Source: Alkalilimnicola ehrlichii MLHE-1 (lineage in GTDB: Bacteria > Pseudomonadota > Gammaproteobacteria > Nitrococcales > Halorhodospiraceae). Taken from it: 32,000 bases of DNA. Numbering within the stretch: position 1 is the first letter of the stretch; every line of letters starts with the position of its first letter. The position numbers were made by a program, and so were the translations under genes. The notes beneath the pieces are model-generated. The model was not told the DNA's origin and did no database searches. It saw nothing but the letters and a program-made list of their open reading frames with translations. The stretch covers positions 1,350,001 through 1,382,000 of the forward strand of contig NC_008340.1 in NCBI RefSeq assembly GCF_000014785.1, in the 5' to 3' direction. This document shows, piece by piece, positions 7,091 to 28,999 of this stretch.

Positions 7091-8179
7091 TTAGTAACAG
7101 CGGGCGGCCTGCACTGAGAGCACCCGGGGCAGGAACTCCGCCACCGTCTCCCAGTGCTCGCCGCCGTCGCGGCTGGCGAACAGGTGGCCGCTGGAGGTGC
7201 CAAAGTACAGCCCCGCCGGATCGGCACCGTCCTGGGCCATGGCCTCGCGCAGGACGGTGACGTAGGCGTGGCGTTGCGGCAATCCCCGGGTCAGGGGCGC
7301 CCAGTGTCGGCCACCGTCACGGCTGCGGTAGACGCGCAGGCGGCCGTCGCAGCAGGTCCGCAGGTGGTTGCTCTCAATGGGGATGACGTACACCGTGTCC
7401 GGATCCTGCGGCGGGGTGGCCAGGGCGTAGCCGAAATCGCTGGGCAGTCCGGAGGAGATCTCCGTCCAGTGCCCGCCCCGGTCGTCGCTGCGGTAGACGC
7501 CGTTGTAACACTGCCGGTAGAGCCGCTCCGGCCGGCGCGGACAGAGCACCGTGCGGTGCACGTTGTGGCCGGTCACGGCGCAGCGGCCGGGCAGGTTCTC
7601 GGCGCGGACCCCCTCGTTGCAGGGGCGCCAGCTTCGCCCGCCGTCGTCGCTGCGGAAGACTCCCCCGGCCGAGATGCTTACGTAGAGGCGTTGCGGCGAT
7701 TGCGGGTCGATCAGGATGGAATGCAACGAAAAGCCACCGCGGGCCGGCTCCCAAGTGTCCCGCGTGGGGTGTTCGTTGAGTGACGCCACAGGCGTCCAGC
7801 TCTGGCCGTAATCATCGCTGCGGAACAGGCCGGCCGGATCGGTGCCGGCGTAGACCGTCCCCGGGGCCTCGGCCGGTCCCGGCGCCAGGTGCCAGACCGC
7901 CTTCATCCGCTTGGGCCACAGCCCGGGGCGGTGCAGGGGCACGCCGGCGAGCGGTTCCCAGCGGTGGCCGGCATCGTCGGTGCGGTAGATATGCGCGCCC
8001 CACACGGGGTGGTCCACCGCCGCCAGCCCCCGCTGCGGGTCGCGCGGGTCCAGCCAGGCGTGCAGCACCTCGTATCCGGCGATCAGCGGCCCGGCCAGCT
8101 CCCAACCGGTCCGGTCAGGGGTGTCCTCCAGCCGGAACAGGCCCTTTTGGGTGCCAACGAGCAGTACGGTCTGGGTCAC
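7091..8179 (-). CDS. BNR/Asp-box repeat beta-propeller protein, cytoplasmic (no signal peptide)
   Basis: 362 aa with six SxDxGxxW Asp-boxes (TDDAGHRW, SDDYGQSW, SDDGGRSW, SDDRGGHW, SRDGGRHW, SRDGGEHW). No sialidase FRIP motif seen. Confidence 0.8.
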   Translation of the reverse strand: MTQTVLLVGTQKGLFRLEDTPDRTGWELAGPLIAGYEVLHAWLDPRDPQRGLAAVDHPVWGAHIYRTDDAGHRWEPLAGVPLHRPGLWPKRMKAVWHLAPGPAEAPGTVYAGTDPAGLFRSDDYGQSWTPVASLNEHPTRDTWEPARGGFSLHSILIDPQSPQRLYVSISAGGVFRSDDGGRSWRPCNEGVRAENLPGRCAVTGHNVHRTVLCPRRPERLYRQCYNGVYRSDDRGGHWTEISSGLPSDFGYALATPPQDPDTVYVIPIESNHLRTCCDGRLRVYRSRDGGRHWAPLTRGLPQRHAYVTVLREAMAQDGADPAGLYFGTSSGHLFASRDGGEHWETVAEFLPRVLSVQAARCY

Positions 8180-8248: not shown

Positions 8249-8677
8249 ATGATGGCGCCATTGTCCCCACACGCCCTGACCCTGCCCGCCCGCGAGCGCG
8301 ACCGGCTCGCGCGGTTGGGCCTGGCGCGCTGGCCGGAGGAGGCCTGTGGGCTCATGCTGGGCTGTGACGGTCGGGTCCGGCGGCTGGTGCTCTGCCGCAA
8401 TGTGGCGGCCCGCCGGGCGGACCGCTACCTGGTCCACGCCCGCGATTTCCTGCGCTGGGACCGCGCCGCCCACCGCCTGGGCCTGGATATCCTGGGCGTC
8501 TGGCACACCCACCCGGACGGCGGGGCGCGACCCTCCGGGACCGACCGTGAGCAGGCCTGGCGGGGGTGGAGCTACCTGATCGCCGCTGTGGACGGGCGTG
8601 CGATCACCGAGTTGCGGAGCTGGCGCCTGCGTGGCGATCATTTCATCGAGGAAACGTTATGTCTGAAACCAGCGTAA
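8249..8677 (+). CDS. JAMM/MPN+ metalloprotease (Mec+/QbsD-like)
   Basis: 142 aa. Catalytic Glu context WPEEACGLMLG. JAMM motif HTHPDGGARPSGTD (HxH-x7-S-xx-D). Overlaps the next gene by 19 nt. Confidence 0.88.
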   Translation: MMAPLSPHALTLPARERDRLARLGLARWPEEACGLMLGCDGRVRRLVLCRNVAARRADRYLVHARDFLRWDRAAHRLGLDILGVWHTHPDGGARPSGTDREQAWRGWSYLIAAVDGRAITELRSWRLRGDHFIEETLCLKPA

Positions 8678-10101
8678 CCGTGCGCCTGCCGGCGCCGTTG
8701 CGGCCCTTCGCCGGGGACCAGCCGGAACTGCACGTCCCGGGCGCCAGCGTGGGCGAGGTGCTCGAGGCCCTGGCCCGCGACTACCCGCTGCTGCACGCCC
8801 GTCTGGTGGATCCGGACGGCGAGTTGCGGGCCTTCGTCAATCTTTTCCGGGGTGAGCAGGACGTACGGGAGCTGGCGGGGCAGAGGACGCCGCTGCGGCC
8901 GGGCGATGTGCTGACCGTGTTGCCGGCGGTGGCCGGCGGGGCGCCCTCCGCCCTGGAGCGCCTCTCGGCGCGGATTCGCCGGGAGGTGCCGGAGGTCACA
9001 CCGGCGGAGGCGCAGAAGCTGGCGGCGCAGGGGGCAGTGCTGCTGGATGTGCGGGAGGCCGGGGAGGTGGCAGAGGGCAGCCCCACCGGCGCGCTGCGCA
9101 TCGACCGCAACTGGCTGGAGTTGCGCATCGAGGAGGCGGTGCCCGAGCCGGAACGGCCCATCCTTACCCTGTGCGCCGTGGGACAGCGCTCGCTGCTGGC
9201 GGCGGACGACCTGCGTCGCCTGGGCTATCGCGACGTGCGCAACATCGCCGGCGGCTTTAACCGCTGGAAGGACGAAGGCCTGCCCTTCGAGGTGCCGCGG
9301 GTGCTGGATGACGCCTCGCGGGCCCGCTACGCCCGCCACCTGCGCATGCCCGAGGTGGGTGAGGCGGGGCAGCTGCGCCTGGGCGAGAGCCGGGTGGTGC
9401 TGGTGGGGGCCGGAGGGCTGGGTTCGCCGGCGGCGCTCTATCTGGCCGCGGCCGGGGTGGGCACCCTGGTGCTGGTCGACCATGACGTGGTGGACCGCAG
9501 CAACCTGCAGCGCCAGATCCTGCATACCGACGACCGGGTCGGCCAGCCCAAGACGGAGTCCGGGCGGCAGGCGGTGGCCGCGCTTAACCCCCAGGTGCGC
9601 GTGGAGGCCGTCCAGGCCCGGCTGAACAGCGAGAACATCGAGGCCGTGCTCGCCGGCGCCGACTTGGTGATCGACGGCTCAGATAACTTTCCCACCCGCT
9701 ACCTGGTCAATGACGCCTGCGTGAAACTGGGCCTGCCGCTGGTCTACGGCGCGGTCTACCGGTTCGAGGGTCAGGTCACGGTGTTCAATGTGGATGACGG
9801 GCCCTGCTACCGCTGCCTCTATCCGGAGCCGCCCCCGGCGGAGCTGGCCCCATCCTGTGCCCAGGCCGGGGTGCTGGGCGTGCTACCGGGGGTGATTGGG
9901 CTGCTGCAGGCCACGGAGGCGGTCAAGCTCCTGCTGGGTGTGGGGGAGCCGCTGTCCGGTCGACTGGTGCACTACGATGCGCTGCGGGGGCAGTTTCAGC
10001 AATTGCGGATGAAGGCCAACCCCGATTGCCCCGTTTGCGCCCCCGGGCGTCCGTTCCCAGGTTATGTGGACTACGAGGCCTTCTGCAGCAGTTCGGCCTG
10101 A
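8659..10101 (+). CDS. Fusion protein: CysO/MoaD-type beta-grasp sulfur carrier with an internal Gly-Gly, then a rhodanese domain, then a ThiF/MoeB E1 adenylyltransferase domain
   Basis: Start chosen at ATG 8659, in frame within ORF 8566..10101. Residues 1-94 (MSETSVTVRLPAPLRPFAGD...FVNLFRGEQDVR...GDVLTVLPAVAGG) follow the CysO layout and end in GG at nt 8935-8940. Rhodanese loop LTLCAVGQRS. E1 motifs VLVGAGGLGSPAALYLAAAG, DRSNLQRQ, SCAQAGVLG, and Zn Cys pairs CYRC and CPVC. Confidence 0.85.
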   Translation: MSETSVTVRLPAPLRPFAGDQPELHVPGASVGEVLEALARDYPLLHARLVDPDGELRAFVNLFRGEQDVRELAGQRTPLRPGDVLTVLPAVAGGAPSALERLSARIRREVPEVTPAEAQKLAAQGAVLLDVREAGEVAEGSPTGALRIDRNWLELRIEEAVPEPERPILTLCAVGQRSLLAADDLRRLGYRDVRNIAGGFNRWKDEGLPFEVPRVLDDASRARYARHLRMPEVGEAGQLRLGESRVVLVGAGGLGSPAALYLAAAGVGTLVLVDHDVVDRSNLQRQILHTDDRVGQPKTESGRQAVAALNPQVRVEAVQARLNSENIEAVLAGADLVIDGSDNFPTRYLVNDACVKLGLPLVYGAVYRFEGQVTVFNVDDGPCYRCLYPEPPPAELAPSCAQAGVLGVLPGVIGLLQATEAVKLLLGVGEPLSGRLVHYDALRGQFQQLRMKANPDCPVCAPGRPFPGYVDYEAFCSSSA

Positions 10102-10164: not shown

Positions 10165-10446
10165 TTATTGGTCCAGCGCTTTGTCCACCGCCTCCGGGTG
10201 GGTTTCGCAGAAGTGTTTCAGGGTTAGTTTCAGCTTGACCACGTGGCGGGTATCGCCGCGGGCCTCGGCGTGTTCAATGTCGTCCAGGATCATCCGCCGG
10301 ATGCGTGGACAGCCCTCCGGTGAGTGCACCAGATAGTTGCCCAGTTCGATCGCCAGCATCTCCGAACAGTGCTCGTGCTCGCAAATGGCGTCGATCTCCT
10401 CCTCCGTGAGCTCCGCGAGCTCCCGGCAGTCGTCGATGGTGAGCAT
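10165..10446 (-). CDS. Hypothetical small acidic protein with five Cys (93 aa)
   Basis: Strong GGAGG Shine-Dalgarno (caGGAGGtcaccATG). GC3-rich codon usage. No family recognised (MLTIDDCRELAELTEEEIDAICEHEHCSEML...). Confidence 0.6.
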   Translation of the reverse strand: MLTIDDCRELAELTEEEIDAICEHEHCSEMLAIELGNYLVHSPEGCPRIRRMILDDIEHAEARGDTRHVVKLKLTLKHFCETHPEAVDKALDQ

Positions 10447-14688: not shown

Positions 14689-15147
14689 TCAGGTCCGGAC
14701 CTTGGGGCCGACCCCGGGCAGGGCGCGCAGTCGGGCCAGTTCGTCGTCGTCGGGCAGGCGTGGCCGGTCGCGCTCACGGTCGACGATACAGAGAAAGCCG
14801 AGGGGTTCATCGCCGCTGGCATGGAACTGGTGAAAGGTCTGTGGCGCGATGTAGATACAGTCGTGCCGGCCGATCCGGTGCAGCGCATCGCCCAGGATCA
14901 GCTCCCCCTGCCCGCGCAGGATCACCACCGTGTGAGTGTGCTGATGCCGCTCCAGGGAGGAGTAGCCGCCGGGGGCGATCTCAAAGTACCGGGTCTGGTG
15001 GCCCAGTGCGCGCTCGTCCTCGTCAGCGCCCAGCAGGGTCTGCCGGGTGATGGCGCGGAAGTGGGTGCCATCGGTCTTGTAGGCCTTCAGCGGCACGCCC
15101 TCCCAGCGGTAGTCGCGGGCGTGGATGACCTTCGATTGCTCGGGCAT
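14689..15147 (-). CDS. Cupin-domain protein. By position a candidate methylthio-xylulose-5-P sulfurylase-type partner of the RLP.
   Basis: 152 aa. Cupin metal motifs (SSLERHQHTHTVVILRGQGE ... FHQFHASG). Starts 1 nt after the RLP stop. Confidence 0.75.
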   Translation of the reverse strand: MPEQSKVIHARDYRWEGVPLKAYKTDGTHFRAITRQTLLGADEDERALGHQTRYFEIAPGGYSSLERHQHTHTVVILRGQGELILGDALHRIGRHDCIYIAPQTFHQFHASGDEPLGFLCIVDRERDRPRLPDDDELARLRALPGVGPKVRT

Positions 15148-15148
15148 A

Positions 15149-16246
15149 TCAGTCTCGGATCGCTTGCATCAGGGCTCGGGAGGCGGCCTCGATGTCGCCC
15201 TGGGCGTAAAGGCTGCCCCCGATCAACAGGATGGTATCGGGCCCGTAGGCCTGCTTCCAGTGGCCAGCCCGCTTCACGTCCACGCCGCCGCCCGGTGTCG
15301 GCCAGGCGCTCGCCAGTCCCTCCAGGGGCCGGCGCAGGGCGTGGTTGATGGCCTGGCAGGTGTCGGCGGAAAAGCGAAAGCGGCCGCCAACGTTGGGATA
15401 GATCACGGCATCGGCGCCGGCAATGCGGAATAACTCGCCCAGCAGCAGGGCCGGGCTGATGCCGTGGCGCGGCAGAAACAGCCCGCCGGTCATCGCCGGA
15501 TGCGCCATCAGGGCCAGGCCGTATTCGTCCCGCGCCCAGCGCAGGGTCTCGAGGCCGGTGAGCCAGGGGCTGATCAGGACCATCTCACAGCCGGCGTCCC
15601 GCGCGGCCGCCAGCCGTTCCCCGAGGGCCTGGGGCGCTGCGGTGACATTGGGCAGGTACAGGCTGCGGCCGCCGCTCCTGCGGTTGGCCTGTCGCACCGC
15701 ATCCTGGCAGGCGTTCAGGCGCTCGGCGAAGGGGGCGTCCGGCTGATCGGCCAGGCCGTGGTCGTCCTTGATCAGATCAACGCCGCCGCGGGCGAAGGCG
15801 GCACACCGTGCGGCCAGCGCCGGTGCCGACAGCCCCATGGGCTTGAGCGCGGCGCAAAGCAATGGCCGCGCCCCCACGTCCAGCCGCGCCCGCAGCCCGG
15901 ACACCCCCAGCCCGGGGCCGCCCCAGCGGCGCAGCAGGCTGGGTGGCCAGGCCACCTGAACCAGCCGGATGCCGGACTGCAGCGAGATATTGCCGAAGAG
16001 CAGGTTGAGGCACTGGGTCAGCTCACCACCGATGGCGGCCAGCGGGTAGTCGATCTCGAGGACCCAGTGGTCCGCCCGCGGCTCGAGCGTGCGGATTCGT
16101 CCCACCATGCGCTCGGCGATGTCGCCGGGCAGGCAGTCGGCCGGCATCTCCACGGTCTGCTCCAGGGCGATGCCGCGGGCCTTGCCCTCGGGGGATTCAC
16201 CCTCGGCCAGGTAAAGCTCATAGGTGGCAGTGAGGACGTCGGTCAT
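15149..16246 (-). CDS. RuBisCO-like protein (Form IV RLP)
   Basis: Start at ATG (complement of 16244-16246) with GGAGGAACACCC upstream. 365 aa, MTDVLTATYELYLAEG... RuBisCO large-subunit barrel motifs are present in altered form: ALKPMGLS (KPK becomes KPM) and GGVDLIKDDHG (KDDE becomes KDDH). Also AHPAMTGG and PTPGGGV. Confidence 0.85.
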   Translation of the reverse strand: MTDVLTATYELYLAEGESPEGKARGIALEQTVEMPADCLPGDIAERMVGRIRTLEPRADHWVLEIDYPLAAIGGELTQCLNLLFGNISLQSGIRLVQVAWPPSLLRRWGGPGLGVSGLRARLDVGARPLLCAALKPMGLSAPALAARCAAFARGGVDLIKDDHGLADQPDAPFAERLNACQDAVRQANRRSGGRSLYLPNVTAAPQALGERLAAARDAGCEMVLISPWLTGLETLRWARDEYGLALMAHPAMTGGLFLPRHGISPALLLGELFRIAGADAVIYPNVGGRFRFSADTCQAINHALRRPLEGLASAWPTPGGGVDVKRAGHWKQAYGPDTILLIGGSLYAQGDIEAASRALMQAIRD

Positions 16247-17139
16247 GGGTGTTCCTCCGCGGGCCGCCGGGCCGGCGGCGCCGCCGGTCGGCGCAGGGTC
16301 AGGTTGAGCAGGCCGGCACCGATGACCAGGGCCATGCCCAGAAGGGTCATGGGGCCCAGCAGCTCGCCCCAGATCCACCAGCCGTAGAGCGAACCGAAGA
16401 CCACCGAGATGTAGGTGAAGGGGCCCAGGCGCCCCGACGGGGCGATGGCGAAAGCCCGGGTGAGCAGGAGCTGGGCCGATGTGGCACAGGCGCCAAGGAC
16501 CACCAACAGCACCAGCGTCTGACCCGTTGGTGTCTGCCAGACCCAGGGCAGGGGCAGGGCGGAGACCGTGGTGGCGGTCACGCCGAACCAGAAGACCACC
16601 CGGCGGCTGGATTCCTCCGGGCCCATGCGCCGGATGGTGACCTTGGCCAGCGCCGCCAGCGCGGCACCGGCCAGGCCCACTGCCCCCACCTGCAGGGCGG
16701 CGCCCTGCATGGCCCCGTTGGGTTGCAGGATGAAATAGACCCCAAGAAAGCCGACGGCGATGGCTAGGACGGTACGGCCGGACAGCGTCTCGCGCAACCA
16801 CAGCCAGGCGATCAGGGGTAGAAAGAAGGGGGCGGAGAGCTTTACCAGCAGCGCCTCCGCCAGCGGCATATGGGCGATGGTCCAGAAAAAGCAGTACATG
16901 GCGCCCACGCCGGCCAGGCCGCGCAGCAGATGCAGGTGCGGCACGCGGGTGGCCAGCCCCCGGCGCCCGCCCCGGACCAGCAGCGGCAGCAACAGCAGCA
17001 ACCCGAACAGGTTGCGGAAGAAGACGAGCATCTCGCTGGGCAGTTCCGCCGACGCCGCCTTGATGGTCGCCGCCATGGTCGCCAGCAGTAACTCGGCGAT
17101 GATGATTAGGGTTGCCCCCCGGCGGACGGCATCACTCAT
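16243..17139 (-). CDS. DMT-superfamily (EamA-type) transporter
   Basis: 298 aa, about 10 hydrophobic helices, duplicated EamA-like halves. Its stop overlaps the RLP start (ATGA). Confidence 0.82.
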   Translation of the reverse strand: MSDAVRRGATLIIIAELLLATMAATIKAASAELPSEMLVFFRNLFGLLLLLPLLVRGGRRGLATRVPHLHLLRGLAGVGAMYCFFWTIAHMPLAEALLVKLSAPFFLPLIAWLWLRETLSGRTVLAIAVGFLGVYFILQPNGAMQGAALQVGAVGLAGAALAALAKVTIRRMGPEESSRRVVFWFGVTATTVSALPLPWVWQTPTGQTLVLLVVLGACATSAQLLLTRAFAIAPSGRLGPFTYISVVFGSLYGWWIWGELLGPMTLLGMALVIGAGLLNLTLRRPAAPPARRPAEEHP

Positions 17140-26737: not shown

Positions 26738-27961
26738 TTACCGATTGCTCAGGTTGAAGAAGGGGCGCAGGCGGATGCCGATCAGGGAGCCGACCCAGGC
26801 GGCGGCGAACCACACCCAGCCATGCAGGCTGGCCGAGGCGATGCCGCTGAACAGCGCGCCGATGTTGCAGCCGAAACCCAGGCGCGCACCATAGCCCATC
26901 AACAGACCGCCGAGAATGGCTGCCAGCAGTGAGCGGGGCGGTATCCGTCCGGCGCTCGCCTTGTTGTACTTGTTGGCCAGGCCGGCGGCCAGCATGGCGC
27001 CCAGGAACACCCCGAAGTTGGTCACCGAGGTCACATTCACCAGCACGCTGTCGCGCAGTGCCAGGGCGGGGTAGTCCCAGGTCCAGAATTCGAACTGGGC
27101 CAAATCGACGCCGACCGCCTGCAGGACCTTCGCCCCCCAAAGGCCGAAGGCAAAGGTGATGCCCCAGGGGTGACCGGAGAGCAATAGGATCGCAAGGTTC
27201 CCCAGGGCGAGGACCACCACCGCCCAGATCAGCGGCCATTGGCCGGTGAAAAAGGTCTGCAGCCACCCCTGGTCCGGGCCCGGACCGACGAACACCTTGC
27301 GCTCCACGTCGCCATGGTGACGCCGCTCCAGGTGGCTGATCCACGCCGTGAGGGCGGCGATCACCGCCAGTTGCACGCCGATGGCGCCGACCGGGCTGAG
27401 GCTGATGCTCAGGTTCACCGGATCGGCCCCCGGCTGATCCAGCCACCAGGGCAGGTGGAAGGTGCCCACCACTGAGCCGACGATGAAGAAGACCAGGGTT
27501 AGCACCATGCGGATGTTGCCGGCACCGACCGTGAACAGGGTACCGGAGCCGCAACCACCGCCCAACTGCATGCCGAGCCCGAACAGAAATGAGCCCAGCA
27601 CCAGCGAGACACCCACCGGCGCCAGTGCACCGGTCATGCTGCCGGCCTCGGCCCCGGCCAGCACCGGTACAAACAGCACCGTGGCCAGGGCCAGCAGGGC
27701 CAACTGCGCGCGCAACCCGGCACTGCGCCGCTCCACCACAAACCGGCGCCAGCCGCCGGTGAAGCCGAAGGCGCCGTGGTAGAGCGCCACCCCCAGCAGG
27801 CCGCCGATGAGGAAGAGGACGGCCATGAAGGGTGCCGTCTCCAGCCAGATCAGCCCGCCCAGCAGGGCGAAGCCCAGCAGTGCCGTGGCGACGATGAAAC
27901 GGTCGATCCCGCCCCGGTCCTCCTGGACTTGTGCGGTGACCGAGGTTGCGGTGCTTGCCAT
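26738..27961 (-). CDS. YeeE/YedE family sulfur-compound (thiosulfate) transporter
   Basis: 407 aa polytopic protein. Has the two conserved Cys loops of the family (QLGGGCGSGTLF and RLGFGCNIGALFSG). AGGAG Shine-Dalgarno 7 nt upstream. Confidence 0.88.
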   Translation of the reverse strand: MASTATSVTAQVQEDRGGIDRFIVATALLGFALLGGLIWLETAPFMAVLFLIGGLLGVALYHGAFGFTGGWRRFVVERRSAGLRAQLALLALATVLFVPVLAGAEAGSMTGALAPVGVSLVLGSFLFGLGMQLGGGCGSGTLFTVGAGNIRMVLTLVFFIVGSVVGTFHLPWWLDQPGADPVNLSISLSPVGAIGVQLAVIAALTAWISHLERRHHGDVERKVFVGPGPDQGWLQTFFTGQWPLIWAVVVLALGNLAILLLSGHPWGITFAFGLWGAKVLQAVGVDLAQFEFWTWDYPALALRDSVLVNVTSVTNFGVFLGAMLAAGLANKYNKASAGRIPPRSLLAAILGGLLMGYGARLGFGCNIGALFSGIASASLHGWVWFAAAWVGSLIGIRLRPFFNLSNR

Positions 27962-28039
27962 TCACTACTCCTGTGGCGAACGGTTCGCAGGGCGGGACCT
28001 GCGAACCGGGGAAAACGGTCTGTCGGGAGCGCCCTAGTT

Positions 28040-28999
28040 TTAGTTGAAGAAGCGCTCAATCAGTCGGGCCAGCCCCTGGCGCTCCACCTGCAGCGGGCGC
28101 TCGGCGTCGGCGCTCCACTCCACCATGGAGCCGTCGTACATCAGCACGTCGTCGTGACCGGCGATCTCGCTAAGCGCGAACCAACCCACGGAGGCCCAGT
28201 GCCCGGTGTTGCAGAAGGTGACGATCTCGCGCTGCGGATCAACGCCCGCCTCGGCCAGCAGTTGCTGCAGCCGTTGGCTGTCCACTGCGCGACCGGACTC
28301 ATCGACGATCAGGCGGGCCTCTTCCACATTCTTGGCCCCGGGGATGGTGCCGTGCGCCCGGGCCGCCGGATGCCCGCCGCGGCCCAGGTAGTGCGCCTGC
28401 GGCCGGTTGTCCACCAGCTGGGCGCCGCGCTCGCGCCACTCCAGTAGTCTTTCGGTGGTGCCAACCATCTCCGGTCGGAAATCCGCTGCGAAGTCGCTGC
28501 GCGGGCGTTCATGACCGCCGGTGGCCACCGGCAGCCCGGCCTCCTGCCAAGCGCGGAAGCCGCCGTTGAGGATGCTGACCCGGTCGTGGCCCAGGACCTT
28601 GAAGGTCCAGTAGATCCGGGCGGCGCTGCCGAAGTCCAGGCCATCAGTACCCGCAGCGGTGATCACCACATGGTCGTCGTTACTGATGCCCAGCTCGCGG
28701 ATCAGCCGCTCGAGCGATGCCACGTCCGGGAGCTGCGCGGGGACGCCCTGGCGCTCCGTGCGCCAGCCCGCCTTCAGGTAGTCGCTGTGGATGGCGCCCG
28801 GGATATGGCCCTCCAGGTAGGTGTCATGGCCACCGCCGTCCAGGGCGTTGCGGACATCCAGGACCACCAGGTCATCGCGCTCCAGTTGCCCCTGGAGCCA
28901 TTCGGGTTCCGCCAGCGGCCGCGCCTCCGGATCGCCCGCCCCGGCGTGGGGGGCCAGGGCCAAGAGGGCGGCGGCGAATAGGCTTGTCAGGATCTTCAT
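28040..28999 (-). CDS. Periplasmic tandem-rhodanese sulfurtransferase (thiosulfate/3-mercaptopyruvate sulfurtransferase family)
   Basis: 319 aa. Signal peptide MKILTSLFAAALLALAPHAGAG. Two rhodanese repeats. Active-site loop VTFCNTGHWAS in the second. Confidence 0.85.
   Translation of the reverse strand: MKILTSLFAAALLALAPHAGAGDPEARPLAEPEWLQGQLERDDLVVLDVRNALDGGGHDTYLEGHIPGAIHSDYLKAGWRTERQGVPAQLPDVASLERLIRELGISNDDHVVITAAGTDGLDFGSAARIYWTFKVLGHDRVSILNGGFRAWQEAGLPVATGGHERPRSDFAADFRPEMVGTTERLLEWRERGAQLVDNRPQAHYLGRGGHPAARAHGTIPGAKNVEEARLIVDESGRAVDSQRLQQLLAEAGVDPQREIVTFCNTGHWASVGWFALSEIAGHDDVLMYDGSMVEWSADAERPLQVERQGLARLIERFFN

Follow-up and report, generated by a model that had tools for sequence, protein, structure and literature searches.

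The window analysed here, a 32,000-nucleotide stretch of the Alkalilimnicola ehrlichii genome, contains two overlapping genes that respectively encode a small JAMM/JAB metalloprotease and a single polypeptide in which a ubiquitin-like (Ubl) carrier domain, a rhodanese domain and an E1 adenylation domain follow one another (Table 1). A preliminary description, made by inspection of the DNA, had recognized this three-part reading frame and an intact JAMM gene upstream of it, and both observations are borne out. Pfam recovers ThiS, Rhodanese and ThiF domains in one 480-residue chain; the motifs VLPAVAGG, CAVGQRS, GAGGLGSP, CYRC and CPVC are all found in it; and the JAB gene overlaps the fusion gene by 19 nucleotides (8659-8677) and encodes a motif, HTHPDGGARPSGTD, that fits the pattern HxHx7Sx2D. 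The codons of Gly93-Gly94 (nt 8935-8940) are internal to the chain, and that of the rhodanese Cys172 occupies positions 9172-9174. An NCBI protein of A. ehrlichii (P0001) is 99% identical to the fusion product and likewise 480 residues long. A longer version of the reading frame, starting from a GTG at 8566, was dropped, as the NCBI protein and the homologues begin at the ATG at 8659. A convergent ORF of 93 codons (10165-10446) was also rejected as a member of the module, having no Pfam or NCBIfam match and being conserved in the closest relative only.

Table 1. Features of the locus, in coordinates of the window
Feature	Position	Strand	Basis or remark
BNR/Asp-box beta-propeller gene, 362 aa, divergent	7091..8179	-	Pfam BNR and Sortilin-Vps10
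JAMM/JAB (MPN+) metalloprotease gene, 142 aa	8249..8677	+	Pfam Prok-JAB PF14464, 3e-24
Ubl-rhodanese-E1 single ORF, 480 aa and stop codon	8659..10101	+	ATG at 8659
Carrier domain of the ThiS/MoaD beta-grasp type, CysO-like (aa 1-94, PAVAGG at its end)	8659..8940	+	Pfam ThiS
Junction (aa 92-96, AGG|AP), predicted to be flexible and to contain the cleavage site	8932..8946	+	AF2 pLDDT, homologues
N-terminal helix and rhodanese domain, ~aa 99-215, loop C172-AVGQRS	8953..9303	+	Pfam Rhodanese
ThiF/MoeB-type E1 adenylation domain, ~aa 216-480	9304..10098	+	Pfam ThiF, Foldseek

The novelty was overstated in the preliminary description, as the locus and the idea of cleavage by the JAB are both already published. 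Iyer, Burroughs and Aravind (2006) list the same locus in their Additional file 2 as MlgDRAFT_2848, a 480-residue 'ThiS+Rhodanese+ThiF' protein, together with MlgDRAFT_2849, a 142-residue protein of the Mov34/MPN/PAD-1 type; the neighbours given there (the 362-aa, 132-aa, 649-aa, 93-aa and cytochrome c genes) match the window, the 362-residue product being named a conserved hypothetical protein. The organism ('Aehr') also appears in row 4b of their Table 1, and the study predicted that JABs release fused ThiS/MoaD domains. Their work is purely computational; its text places the rhodanese at the C-terminus when speaking of the class as a whole, and the A. ehrlichii fusion is not taken up there.

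Conservation of the fusion and of its catalytic motifs

The fusion architecture, with its internal diglycine intact, recurs in at least 119 protein clusters of Gamma- and Betaproteobacteria. The lengths of the 119 full-length top homologues all fall within 460-499 residues, and each homologue has the same set of three Pfam domains. The clusters, at 58-89% identity, derive from independent genomes and metagenomes and maintain the fusion in frame. In certain relatives (e.g. L017, L025 and L033) the carrier and the rhodanese-E1 protein are encoded by separate genes that abut or overlap, and a single indel could join such genes; this might point to an error of sequencing or assembly, or to adjacent genes that have recently come to be read through in the manner of a pseudogene. 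The chance of this is negligible: the 480-residue ORF was already present in the 2006 draft (MlgDRAFT_2848) and is still present in the NCBI record, the codon GC3 is 0.86 along its whole length, and the survey of orthologues proposed in the preliminary description yields the in-frame fusion in all 119 clusters. The artefact reading is thus effectively refuted, and the fusion arrangement is real and widespread.

The N-terminal segment had been taken for a β-grasp carrier resembling CysO of Mycobacterium tuberculosis, with the diglycine at its natural terminus, and the comparisons support this assignment. The Pfam ThiS match extends over residues 8-94 and covers the entire model (positions 1-76 of 76), with the diglycine at the model end. 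The best match in the PDB is M. tuberculosis CysO itself (3dwg_C, E 8e-16, ~41% identity), which aligns from end to end such that the diglycine of the fusion falls on the C-terminal diglycine of CysO, both sequences ending in PAVAGG; against the archaeal moaD_arch model (TIGR01687) the carrier scores 35.4 bits, the cut-off being 49.5. Furthermore, separate carrier genes ending exactly in VAGG followed by a stop codon occur in seven orthologous loci (L004, L007, L013, L017, L023, L025 and L033). In the fused homologues P[AS]VAGG is retained without exception (119/119), and it is usually followed by A, S or N. In the AlphaFold2 model of the fusion, residues 1-90 have pLDDT values of 82-93, and residues 92-96, situated between two confident domains, form the sole segment with values below 50.

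The region beyond this junction corresponds to a complete stand-alone protein family. Residues 99-479 match NF006444/PRK08762, named 'molybdopterin-synthase adenylyltransferase MoeB', with 651.8 bits (cut-off 449) over model positions 3-386 of 387; the family model has the same rhodanese-E1 order and does not include a carrier domain. The preliminary description had regarded the rhodanese as permuted; it does lie N-terminal to the E1 domain, but this order is that of an already curated family, and all 80 loci recovered by the first scan share the rhodanese-E1 unit. Most members of the family have no carrier or JAB gene nearby. The score against TIGR02355 (moeB) is 237.9 bits, under its cut-off of 376.55, and that against the subfamily model NF004281 is 309.7, above the threshold of 266. 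Within this region the Pfam Rhodanese match spans residues 114-205 (1.4e-12), with C172, G175 and R177 invariant in 59 aligned homologues, and the ThiF match spans residues 224-459 (2e-86). The E1 domain displays the GxGxxG loop, four zinc cysteines (C383, C386, C457 and C460), Cys400 and a conserved C-terminal motif FPGYVDYExFC that includes Cys476, and Foldseek aligns it with ThiF (1zud) and MoeB (1jw9) at target TM-scores of 0.94-0.96. The JAMM, PAVAGG, Cys172, the GxGxxG loop, the zinc cysteines and Cys400, which together make up the catalytic motifs of the two proteins, are all intact and conserved.

The locus presents three components that characterize the JAB / ThiS-MoaD / E1-rhodanese operons (class 4 of Iyer et al. 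2006): a ThiS/MoaD-fold carrier with a diglycine (internal here, its release being putative), an E1 adenylation domain with a rhodanese bearing the catalytic cysteine (in the order rhodanese-E1 and not E1-rhodanese), and a separate JAB, encoded next to the fusion, whose JAMM motif is intact. A gene for a CysM-type PLP sulfhydrylase, the dedicated partner in the CysO/CysM/Mec+ cysteine pathway, was not found among the likely genes of the window.

The JAB gene and probable release of the carrier

The best PDB match of the JAB protein is 2kcq (E 1e-18), and the HxHx7Sx2D signature is present in all 25 neighbouring JABs of related loci. Among the loci that could be assessed, a JAB gene adjoins all 11 fused carriers with an intact diglycine and all six carriers with a tail of 2-12 residues after it (L006, L010, L015, L027, L095 and L096), as against three of the eight carriers that stop at the diglycine; the contrast (17/17 versus 3/8) gives a Fisher p of 0.001, a value that ignores phylogeny. 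One fused homologue (L005) has a degenerate end, PDFAAAG, at the equivalent position, with no JAB nearby. The co-occurrence supports cleavage by the JAB after Gly94, and we consider it likely, on these comparative grounds, that the JAB is the processing protease of the fusion protein. JAB genes are also found next to the diglycine-stop carriers of L004, L007 and L013 and next to rhodanese-E1 genes with no detectable carrier nearby (L039, L040, L121 and L124); therefore processing is not the sole role of the JAB, and the earlier proposal of a carrier-releasing protease is upheld as a probable function of the enzyme but not as its only one. Literature searches found no experimental study of a Ubl-rhodanese-E1 fusion, nor biochemical evidence that any of them is cleaved.

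Two other functional readings bear on this proposal. The fused β-grasp domain may never be released, and might instead be a docking or regulatory part of a housekeeping MoeB-type E1 that serves a separate MoaD or ThiS, with the JAB having an unrelated or deconjugating role. Such a non-carrier role was proposed by Iyer et al. (2006) for Campylobacter Ubl-ThiF fusions that coexist with a separate ThiS, and A. ehrlichii itself has separate ThiS-ThiG and AOR-MoaD operons; the name MoeB given by NCBI to the fusion protein, the lack of a nearby carrier in most of the rhodanese-E1 family, and L005, which exemplifies a fused form that cannot be cleaved, agree with it too. However, all 119 fused homologues strictly keep P[AS]VAGG, which is hard to explain if a free C-terminus is never exposed, orthologues with a diglycine-stop carrier are known, and disorder is predicted at the junction. 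Moreover, a permanently fused domain predicts that JABs should be lacking throughout, whereas they adjoin the carrier in 17/17 loci where it is fused or tailed and its diglycine intact, and only the degenerate L005 fits. We hence regard a permanently attached carrier as improbable.

Alternatively, the module could act mainly in protein conjugation of the sampylation, urmylation or TtuB-like kind, with the released carrier being placed on target lysines and the JAB serving mainly as a deconjugase. The same three types of protein make up the SAMP1/UbaA/HvJAMM1 system of Haloferax, and the similarity is recognizable in the scores against the NCBIfam models for SAMP1 (56.5 bits), UbaA (342.5 bits, E 1.5e-102) and the Haloferax desampylase (69.2 bits, E 3e-19), but each of these stays under its curated cut-off (60, 450 and 130, respectively). 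The Haloferax E1 also lacks a rhodanese and its carrier is free, in contrast to the rhodanese-E1 with a fused carrier seen here. The presence of JABs beside carriers already ending in the diglycine (L004, L007 and L013) and the lack of a small-molecule acceptor enzyme in the window would be compatible with conjugation. Yet structurally the carrier comes closest to CysO, a sulfur carrier, the active-site cysteine of the rhodanese is invariant, no E2- or E3-like genes were seen, and cysteine-synthase, SufS/SufU and molybdenum-cofactor genes among the neighbours are indicative of sulfur transfer. We regard conjugation as improbable for the principal function. In our opinion the two genes probably form, by themselves, a module for sulfur-carrier activation of the JAB / ThiS-MoaD / E1-rhodanese class, with the carrier being released by the JAB.

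According to this proposal the 480-residue product would be a precursor in which the JAB hydrolyses the Gly94-Ala95 bond. The products would be a CysO-like carrier of 94 residues, its AVAGG carboxylate now free, and a rhodanese-E1 enzyme of 386 residues that matches NF006444. By the chemistry established for the family, Gly94 would then be adenylated by the E1 domain, and the persulfide on Cys172 of the rhodanese would attack the acyl-adenylate, with reduction giving the carrier thiocarboxylate, which a partner enzyme would be expected to consume.

Genomic neighbours and possible sulfur acceptors

The preliminary description had stated that no acceptor enzyme is encoded in the vicinity. A Pfam scan of the likely genes of the 32,000-nucleotide window indeed detected no member of the PALP, ThiG or MoaE families, but the statement does not extend to the relatives, in five of which (L001, L002, L010, L082 and L084) the gene immediately downstream of the fusion encodes a cysteine-synthase-like PALP protein and often overlaps the fusion stop codon (as in Aromatoleum, Inmirania and several metagenome-assembled genomes). 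The same description had held that a canonical acceptor conserved as the genomic partner elsewhere would make the locus an ordinary pathway variant, and the PALP genes of these relatives go part of the way towards this. Their products score 266-284 bits, under the curated cysK/cysM cut-off of 344, and a PDB sequence search with them is not discriminating (M. tuberculosis CysM 156 bits versus 185 for the best cysteine synthase).

The flanking genes, earlier dismissed as unrelated, turn out to include a conserved neighbour. The divergent BNR propeller, which is highly conserved, recurs beside the Ubl/JAB/E1 module, usually with YqeC and the molybdenum-cofactor genes MoeA, MobA or MoaA; the window propeller belongs to the same ORF cluster (c14) as those adjoining YqeC-Ubl-JAB-rhodanese-E1 genes in L004, L007, L013, L017 and L027, and the divergent layout is also seen in L081, L086 and L090, Aquisalimonas and Natronocella being among such relatives. 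SufS and SufU genes are found near related loci as well. A neighbour-joining tree of the rhodanese-E1 core, computed without bootstrap, does not resolve the two contexts, loci with cysteine-synthase neighbours and loci with BNR/YqeC neighbours being intermixed.

One of the closest known systems is the mec+/cysO/cysM cluster of M. tuberculosis, together with MoeZ, which is alike in its CysO-type carrier, the adjacent JAMM gene, the rhodanese-bearing E1 and, as regards the relatives of the window fusion, the cysteine-synthase-like gene directly downstream. It differs in that CysO is free and MoeZ is encoded elsewhere, whereas the carrier of the window is fused to its E1; in that the MoeZ rhodanese is C-terminal and that of the fusion N-terminal to the E1; and in possessing cysM, no counterpart of which is found in the window. 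Mec+ hydrolyses CysO-Cys, and in the relatives with a downstream PALP gene, where the partner would be a cysteine-synthase-like PLP enzyme as in mec/cysO/cysM, the same JAB would release the cysteine adduct too. The QbsC/D/E (thioquinolobactin) and Wolinella HcyS/D/F systems offer a precedent for the order of events proposed here, their JAMM proteins exposing the carrier diglycine before an E1-rhodanese makes the thiocarboxylate. QbsD and HcyD trim short tails, of 1-2 residues, from QbsE and HcyS, and the loci with 2-12-residue tails are their direct analogues; in the window, by contrast, a 386-residue enzyme would be removed, and no siderophore or homocysteine genes are near.

As no PALP gene is adjacent in the lineage of the window, where the partner is instead the BNR propeller that elsewhere accompanies YqeC and molybdenum-cofactor genes, the sulfur sink in A. 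ehrlichii may be a CysM-type enzyme whose gene lies elsewhere, or else a step related to the Mo/W cofactor. In the stricter form of the latter reading, the released thiocarboxylate would feed not cysteine synthesis but an undescribed step of Mo/W-cofactor maturation, for instance by supplying a sulfido or selenido ligand, together with the BNR propeller and, in most relatives, YqeC; we put this forward tentatively, as an unlikely option. YqeC is known as a 'selenium cofactor biosynthesis' protein. Were this reading true, BNR-YqeC-JAB-Ubl-rhodanese-E1 would represent a new cofactor-maturation module; we found no earlier description of the link between the propeller, YqeC and the molybdenum-cofactor genes, and it might help towards understanding the function of YqeC.

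Confirmation of the cleavage would extend known biology and not overturn it, given that the idea dates from 2006 and that trimming of tails by JAMM proteins has been shown in related systems. If the JAB does excise the carrier from its own E1, the locus would provide a clean bacterial case of a Ubl polyprotein matured by a DUB-type metalloprotease, paralleling the processing of eukaryotic ubiquitin precursors, and with two genes and one cleavage site it would make an easy system for study in vitro.

Architecture and conservation of the JAB-fusion pair

The JAMM protease and the single chain joining a CysO-like carrier, a rhodanese domain and an E1 enzyme, both proposed in the preliminary description, were confirmed by Pfam domains and motifs, and all the motifs quoted there occur in the window, whose G+C content is 64-74%. 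The signature of the protease (JAB) is HTHPDGGARPSGTD, consistent with HxHx7Sx2D, and the 480-aa fusion product is 99% identical to the A. ehrlichii protein at NCBI. As the ThiS match covers its entire model, the diglycine (Gly93-Gly94) lies at the model end. Among solved structures, M. tuberculosis CysO (3dwg_C, E 8e-16, ~41% identity to the carrier domain) comes closest to the N-terminal domain: fusion residues 5-94 align with residues 2-93 of its 93 and LPAVAGG terminates both, which bears out the expected equivalence of the carrier diglycine with the CysO C-terminus. AlphaFold2, given 59 homologues, yields a confident model (mean pLDDT 88.8): the N-terminal domain mixes strands and helices (pLDDT 82-93), values drop below 50 only at residues 92-96 (AGGAP), and the E1 region fits onto ThiF and MoeB at target TM-scores of 0.94-0.96. 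The conserved motif at the E1 C-terminus includes an invariant Cys476 outside the zinc site, which may be an extra cysteine of the sulfur relay. An internal diglycine is also seen in the solved structure of the Thermus thermophilus 'MoaD related protein' (PDB 1v8c, 168 aa), which aligns with the carrier and has ~80 residues past the GG at positions 86-87.

Features of the window and of the fusion product
Feature	Position	Strand	Remarks
Divergent propeller gene	7091-8179	-	362 aa; member of type B BNR propeller family
JAB	8249-8677	+	142 aa; Pfam Prok-JAB 3e-24
Fusion ORF	8659-10101	+	three Pfam domains in a single chain; 19-nt overlap with JAB ORF
ThiS domain of fusion	aa 8-94		Pfam; model positions 1-76 of 76
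Rhodanese domain of fusion	aa 114-205		Pfam
ThiF domain of fusion	aa 224-459		Pfam
E1 C-terminal motif	10057-10098 (aa 467-480)		FPGYVDYExFC
Cysteine-rich 93-aa ORF	10165-10446	-	CEHEHC...; convergent with fusion
Cupin gene and RuBisCO large-chain domain gene	14689-16801	-	adjoining
YeeE/YedE-type sulfur transporter and two-domain rhodanese	26738-28999	-	PF04143 (transporter); about 17 kb from module

A rhodanese N-terminal to the E1 forms the common core in 80/80 loci of our first scan. The order described earlier as permuted is thus real but already catalogued, since the curated NCBIfam model NF006444/PRK08762 represents exactly this Rhod-E1 (651.8 bits versus a cut-off of 449; aa 99-479 matching model positions 3-386 of 387). 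In composition the fusion is a carrier, about four linker residues and a complete stand-alone Rhod-E1. Of the best 120 database matches to the fusion (58-89% identity), 119 share its three Pfam domains and its length of about 480 aa, the lone exception (P0100, 453 aa) being truncated N-terminally; these 119 keep the internal P[AS]VAGG, usually followed by A, S or N. In 59 aligned sequences the rhodanese Cys172, the E1 glycine loop, the four zinc cysteines, Cys400 and Cys476 are invariant. The recurrence of this architecture, with its internal GG motif, in isolates (Aromatoleum, Aquisalimonas, Inmirania) and many metagenomes rules out an artefactual fusion.

Carrier C-terminus and the presence of JAB

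The loci of relatives (80 genome loci, 80 metagenome loci and ten contexts from an exact-protein look-up) were scanned with HMMs built for the present analysis. A JAB adjoins 17/17 fused or tailed carriers with an intact GG versus 3/8 carriers ending in a GG-stop (Fisher p = 0.001, uncorrected for shared ancestry), and the JAMM motif is intact in 25/25 distinct neighbouring JABs. This pattern is as expected if the carrier functionally ends at the GG and requires JAB wherever residues follow it.

Carrier forms and JAB adjacency in the scanned loci
Carrier form	Loci	JAB adjacent
Separate gene, exact VAGG-stop	L004, L007, L013, L017, L023, L025, L033, L115	3/8
Separate gene, 2-12 aa tail past GG	L006, L010, L015, L027, L095, L096	6/6
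Fused in frame, GG intact, upstream DNA present	window and ten others	11/11
Fused, degenerate carrier end (PDFAAAG)	L005	0/1

In the degenerate case (L005:1797-3317) PDFAAAG replaces PAVAGG and no JAB occurs within about 2 kb upstream; this fusion appears to be a non-cleavable version. In two unrelated metagenome-assembled genomes (L006:3840-4020, L015:10200-10400) the carrier gene extends 6-10 codons beyond the GG, its tail overlapping out of frame a Rhod-E1 with its own ATG start (MGAKD...), and these look like genuine split, short-tailed forms rather than sequencing frameshifts.

At four Acidimicrobiia-type loci (L039, L040, L121, L124) JAB lies 12-18 nt after Rhod-E1, with no carrier gene detected nearby, which shows a role beyond fusion processing. 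As JAB accompanies both GG-stop carriers and these carrier-less Rhod-E1s, it must do something else as well, for example release the product, as Mec+ does, or act in deconjugation.

In the best-supported account JAB would cut after Gly94, as the comparative pattern suggests, the freed carboxylate would be adenylated by the E1, the Cys172 persulfide would turn the adenylate into a thiocarboxylate, and a partner enzyme would use this up. E1 adenylation and persulfide-to-thiocarboxylate conversion are established chemistry for the family; their operation here is our extrapolation.

Genomic contexts and the sulfur sink

No PALP (cysteine-synthase-like PLP enzyme), ThiG or MoaE family was detected when the likely genes of the window were scanned against Pfam, and the earlier statement that no sulfur acceptor lies nearby therefore holds within the window. 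The flanks do matter, however, since the BNR propeller recurs beside Ubl/JAB/Rhod-E1 genes in relatives.

These relatives show two recurrent contexts, which a rough Rhod-E1 core tree does not separate. Type A, found in Aromatoleum evansii, Inmirania thermothiophila and several metagenome-assembled genomes, has the order [SufS-SufU]-JAB-fusion-PALP, with the PALP gene directly 3' of the fusion and often overlapping its stop codon; the PALP falls in the cysteine synthase family (TIGR01136, 266-284 bits, under the cut-off of 344). This layout resembles mec/cysO/cysM but adds an E1 in cis. In type B the Ubl/JAB/Rhod-E1 genes have as neighbour a BNR/Asp-box propeller whose gene is translationally coupled to YqeC (TIGR03172, 151 bits versus a cut-off of 73); MoeA, MobA and MoaA lie in the vicinity, in some cases along with a molybdopterin oxidoreductase cluster. 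Aquisalimonas and Natronocella are divergent as in the window, YqeC-BNR and JAB-fusion lying on opposite strands. Since its 362-aa gene belongs to the propeller family, the window is a type B locus without adjacent YqeC; its closest relative (88% identity) has an identical layout.

The propeller (loci: window, L004, L007, L013, L017, L025, L027, L033, L081, L086, L088, L089, L090) is highly conserved, with 57-83% identity among the top 120 matches, one of them from Gemmatimonadota. It is almost always coupled to YqeC ('selenium cofactor biosynthesis'), and the pair recurs beside Mo/W-cofactor genes and the Ubl/JAB/Rhod-E1 module. One Gemmatimonadota genome has the pair without this module, and the Pelomicrobium pair neighbours an AOR/MoaD operon for a tungsten enzyme. 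The literature searched yielded no description of the pairing.

For type A, the cysteine-synthase-like enzyme is the probable partner. In A. ehrlichii the sulfur could pass to a CysM-type enzyme whose gene lies elsewhere, or into a Mo/W-cofactor-related step with the BNR propeller. According to PMC3227635, MoeZR of M. tuberculosis serves CysO and MoaD alike, which makes dual use plausible. Since ThiS-ThiG and AOR-MoaD form operons of their own in A. ehrlichii, the fused carrier is an additional one.

Elsewhere in the window, the YeeE/YedE and two-domain rhodanese genes may form a pair for thiosulfate uptake and sulfur transfer. The product of the gene with the RuBisCO large-chain catalytic domain is probably RuBisCO-like and not a genuine RuBisCO, as its homologue in a relative (L085) has only 365 aa. 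The 93-aa ORF lacks a family match, and its conservation is confined to the closest relative (90% identity).

The paper of Iyer, Burroughs and Aravind (Genome Biol 2006, PMC1779556) has 'Aehr' in row 4b of its Table 1, and its Additional file 2 prints this neighborhood: MlgDRAFT_2848 (480 aa, 'ThiS+Rhodanese+ThiF') and MlgDRAFT_2849 (142 aa, Mov34/MPN/PAD-1), flanked by a 362-aa conserved hypothetical, a 132-aa protein, a 649-aa helicase, a 93-aa protein and cytochrome c. Gene lengths and order are those of the window; hence observation and interpretation were already in the literature, where our search found no experimental test of the fused family. The feature is real, its interpretation largely right, and it is a known bioinformatic finding belonging to a known kind of system. 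New here are the counts that tie JAB to the C-terminal status of the carrier, the degenerate counter-example and the BNR/YqeC/Mo-cofactor association; the remaining interest lies in the sulfur sink and the BNR-YqeC link.
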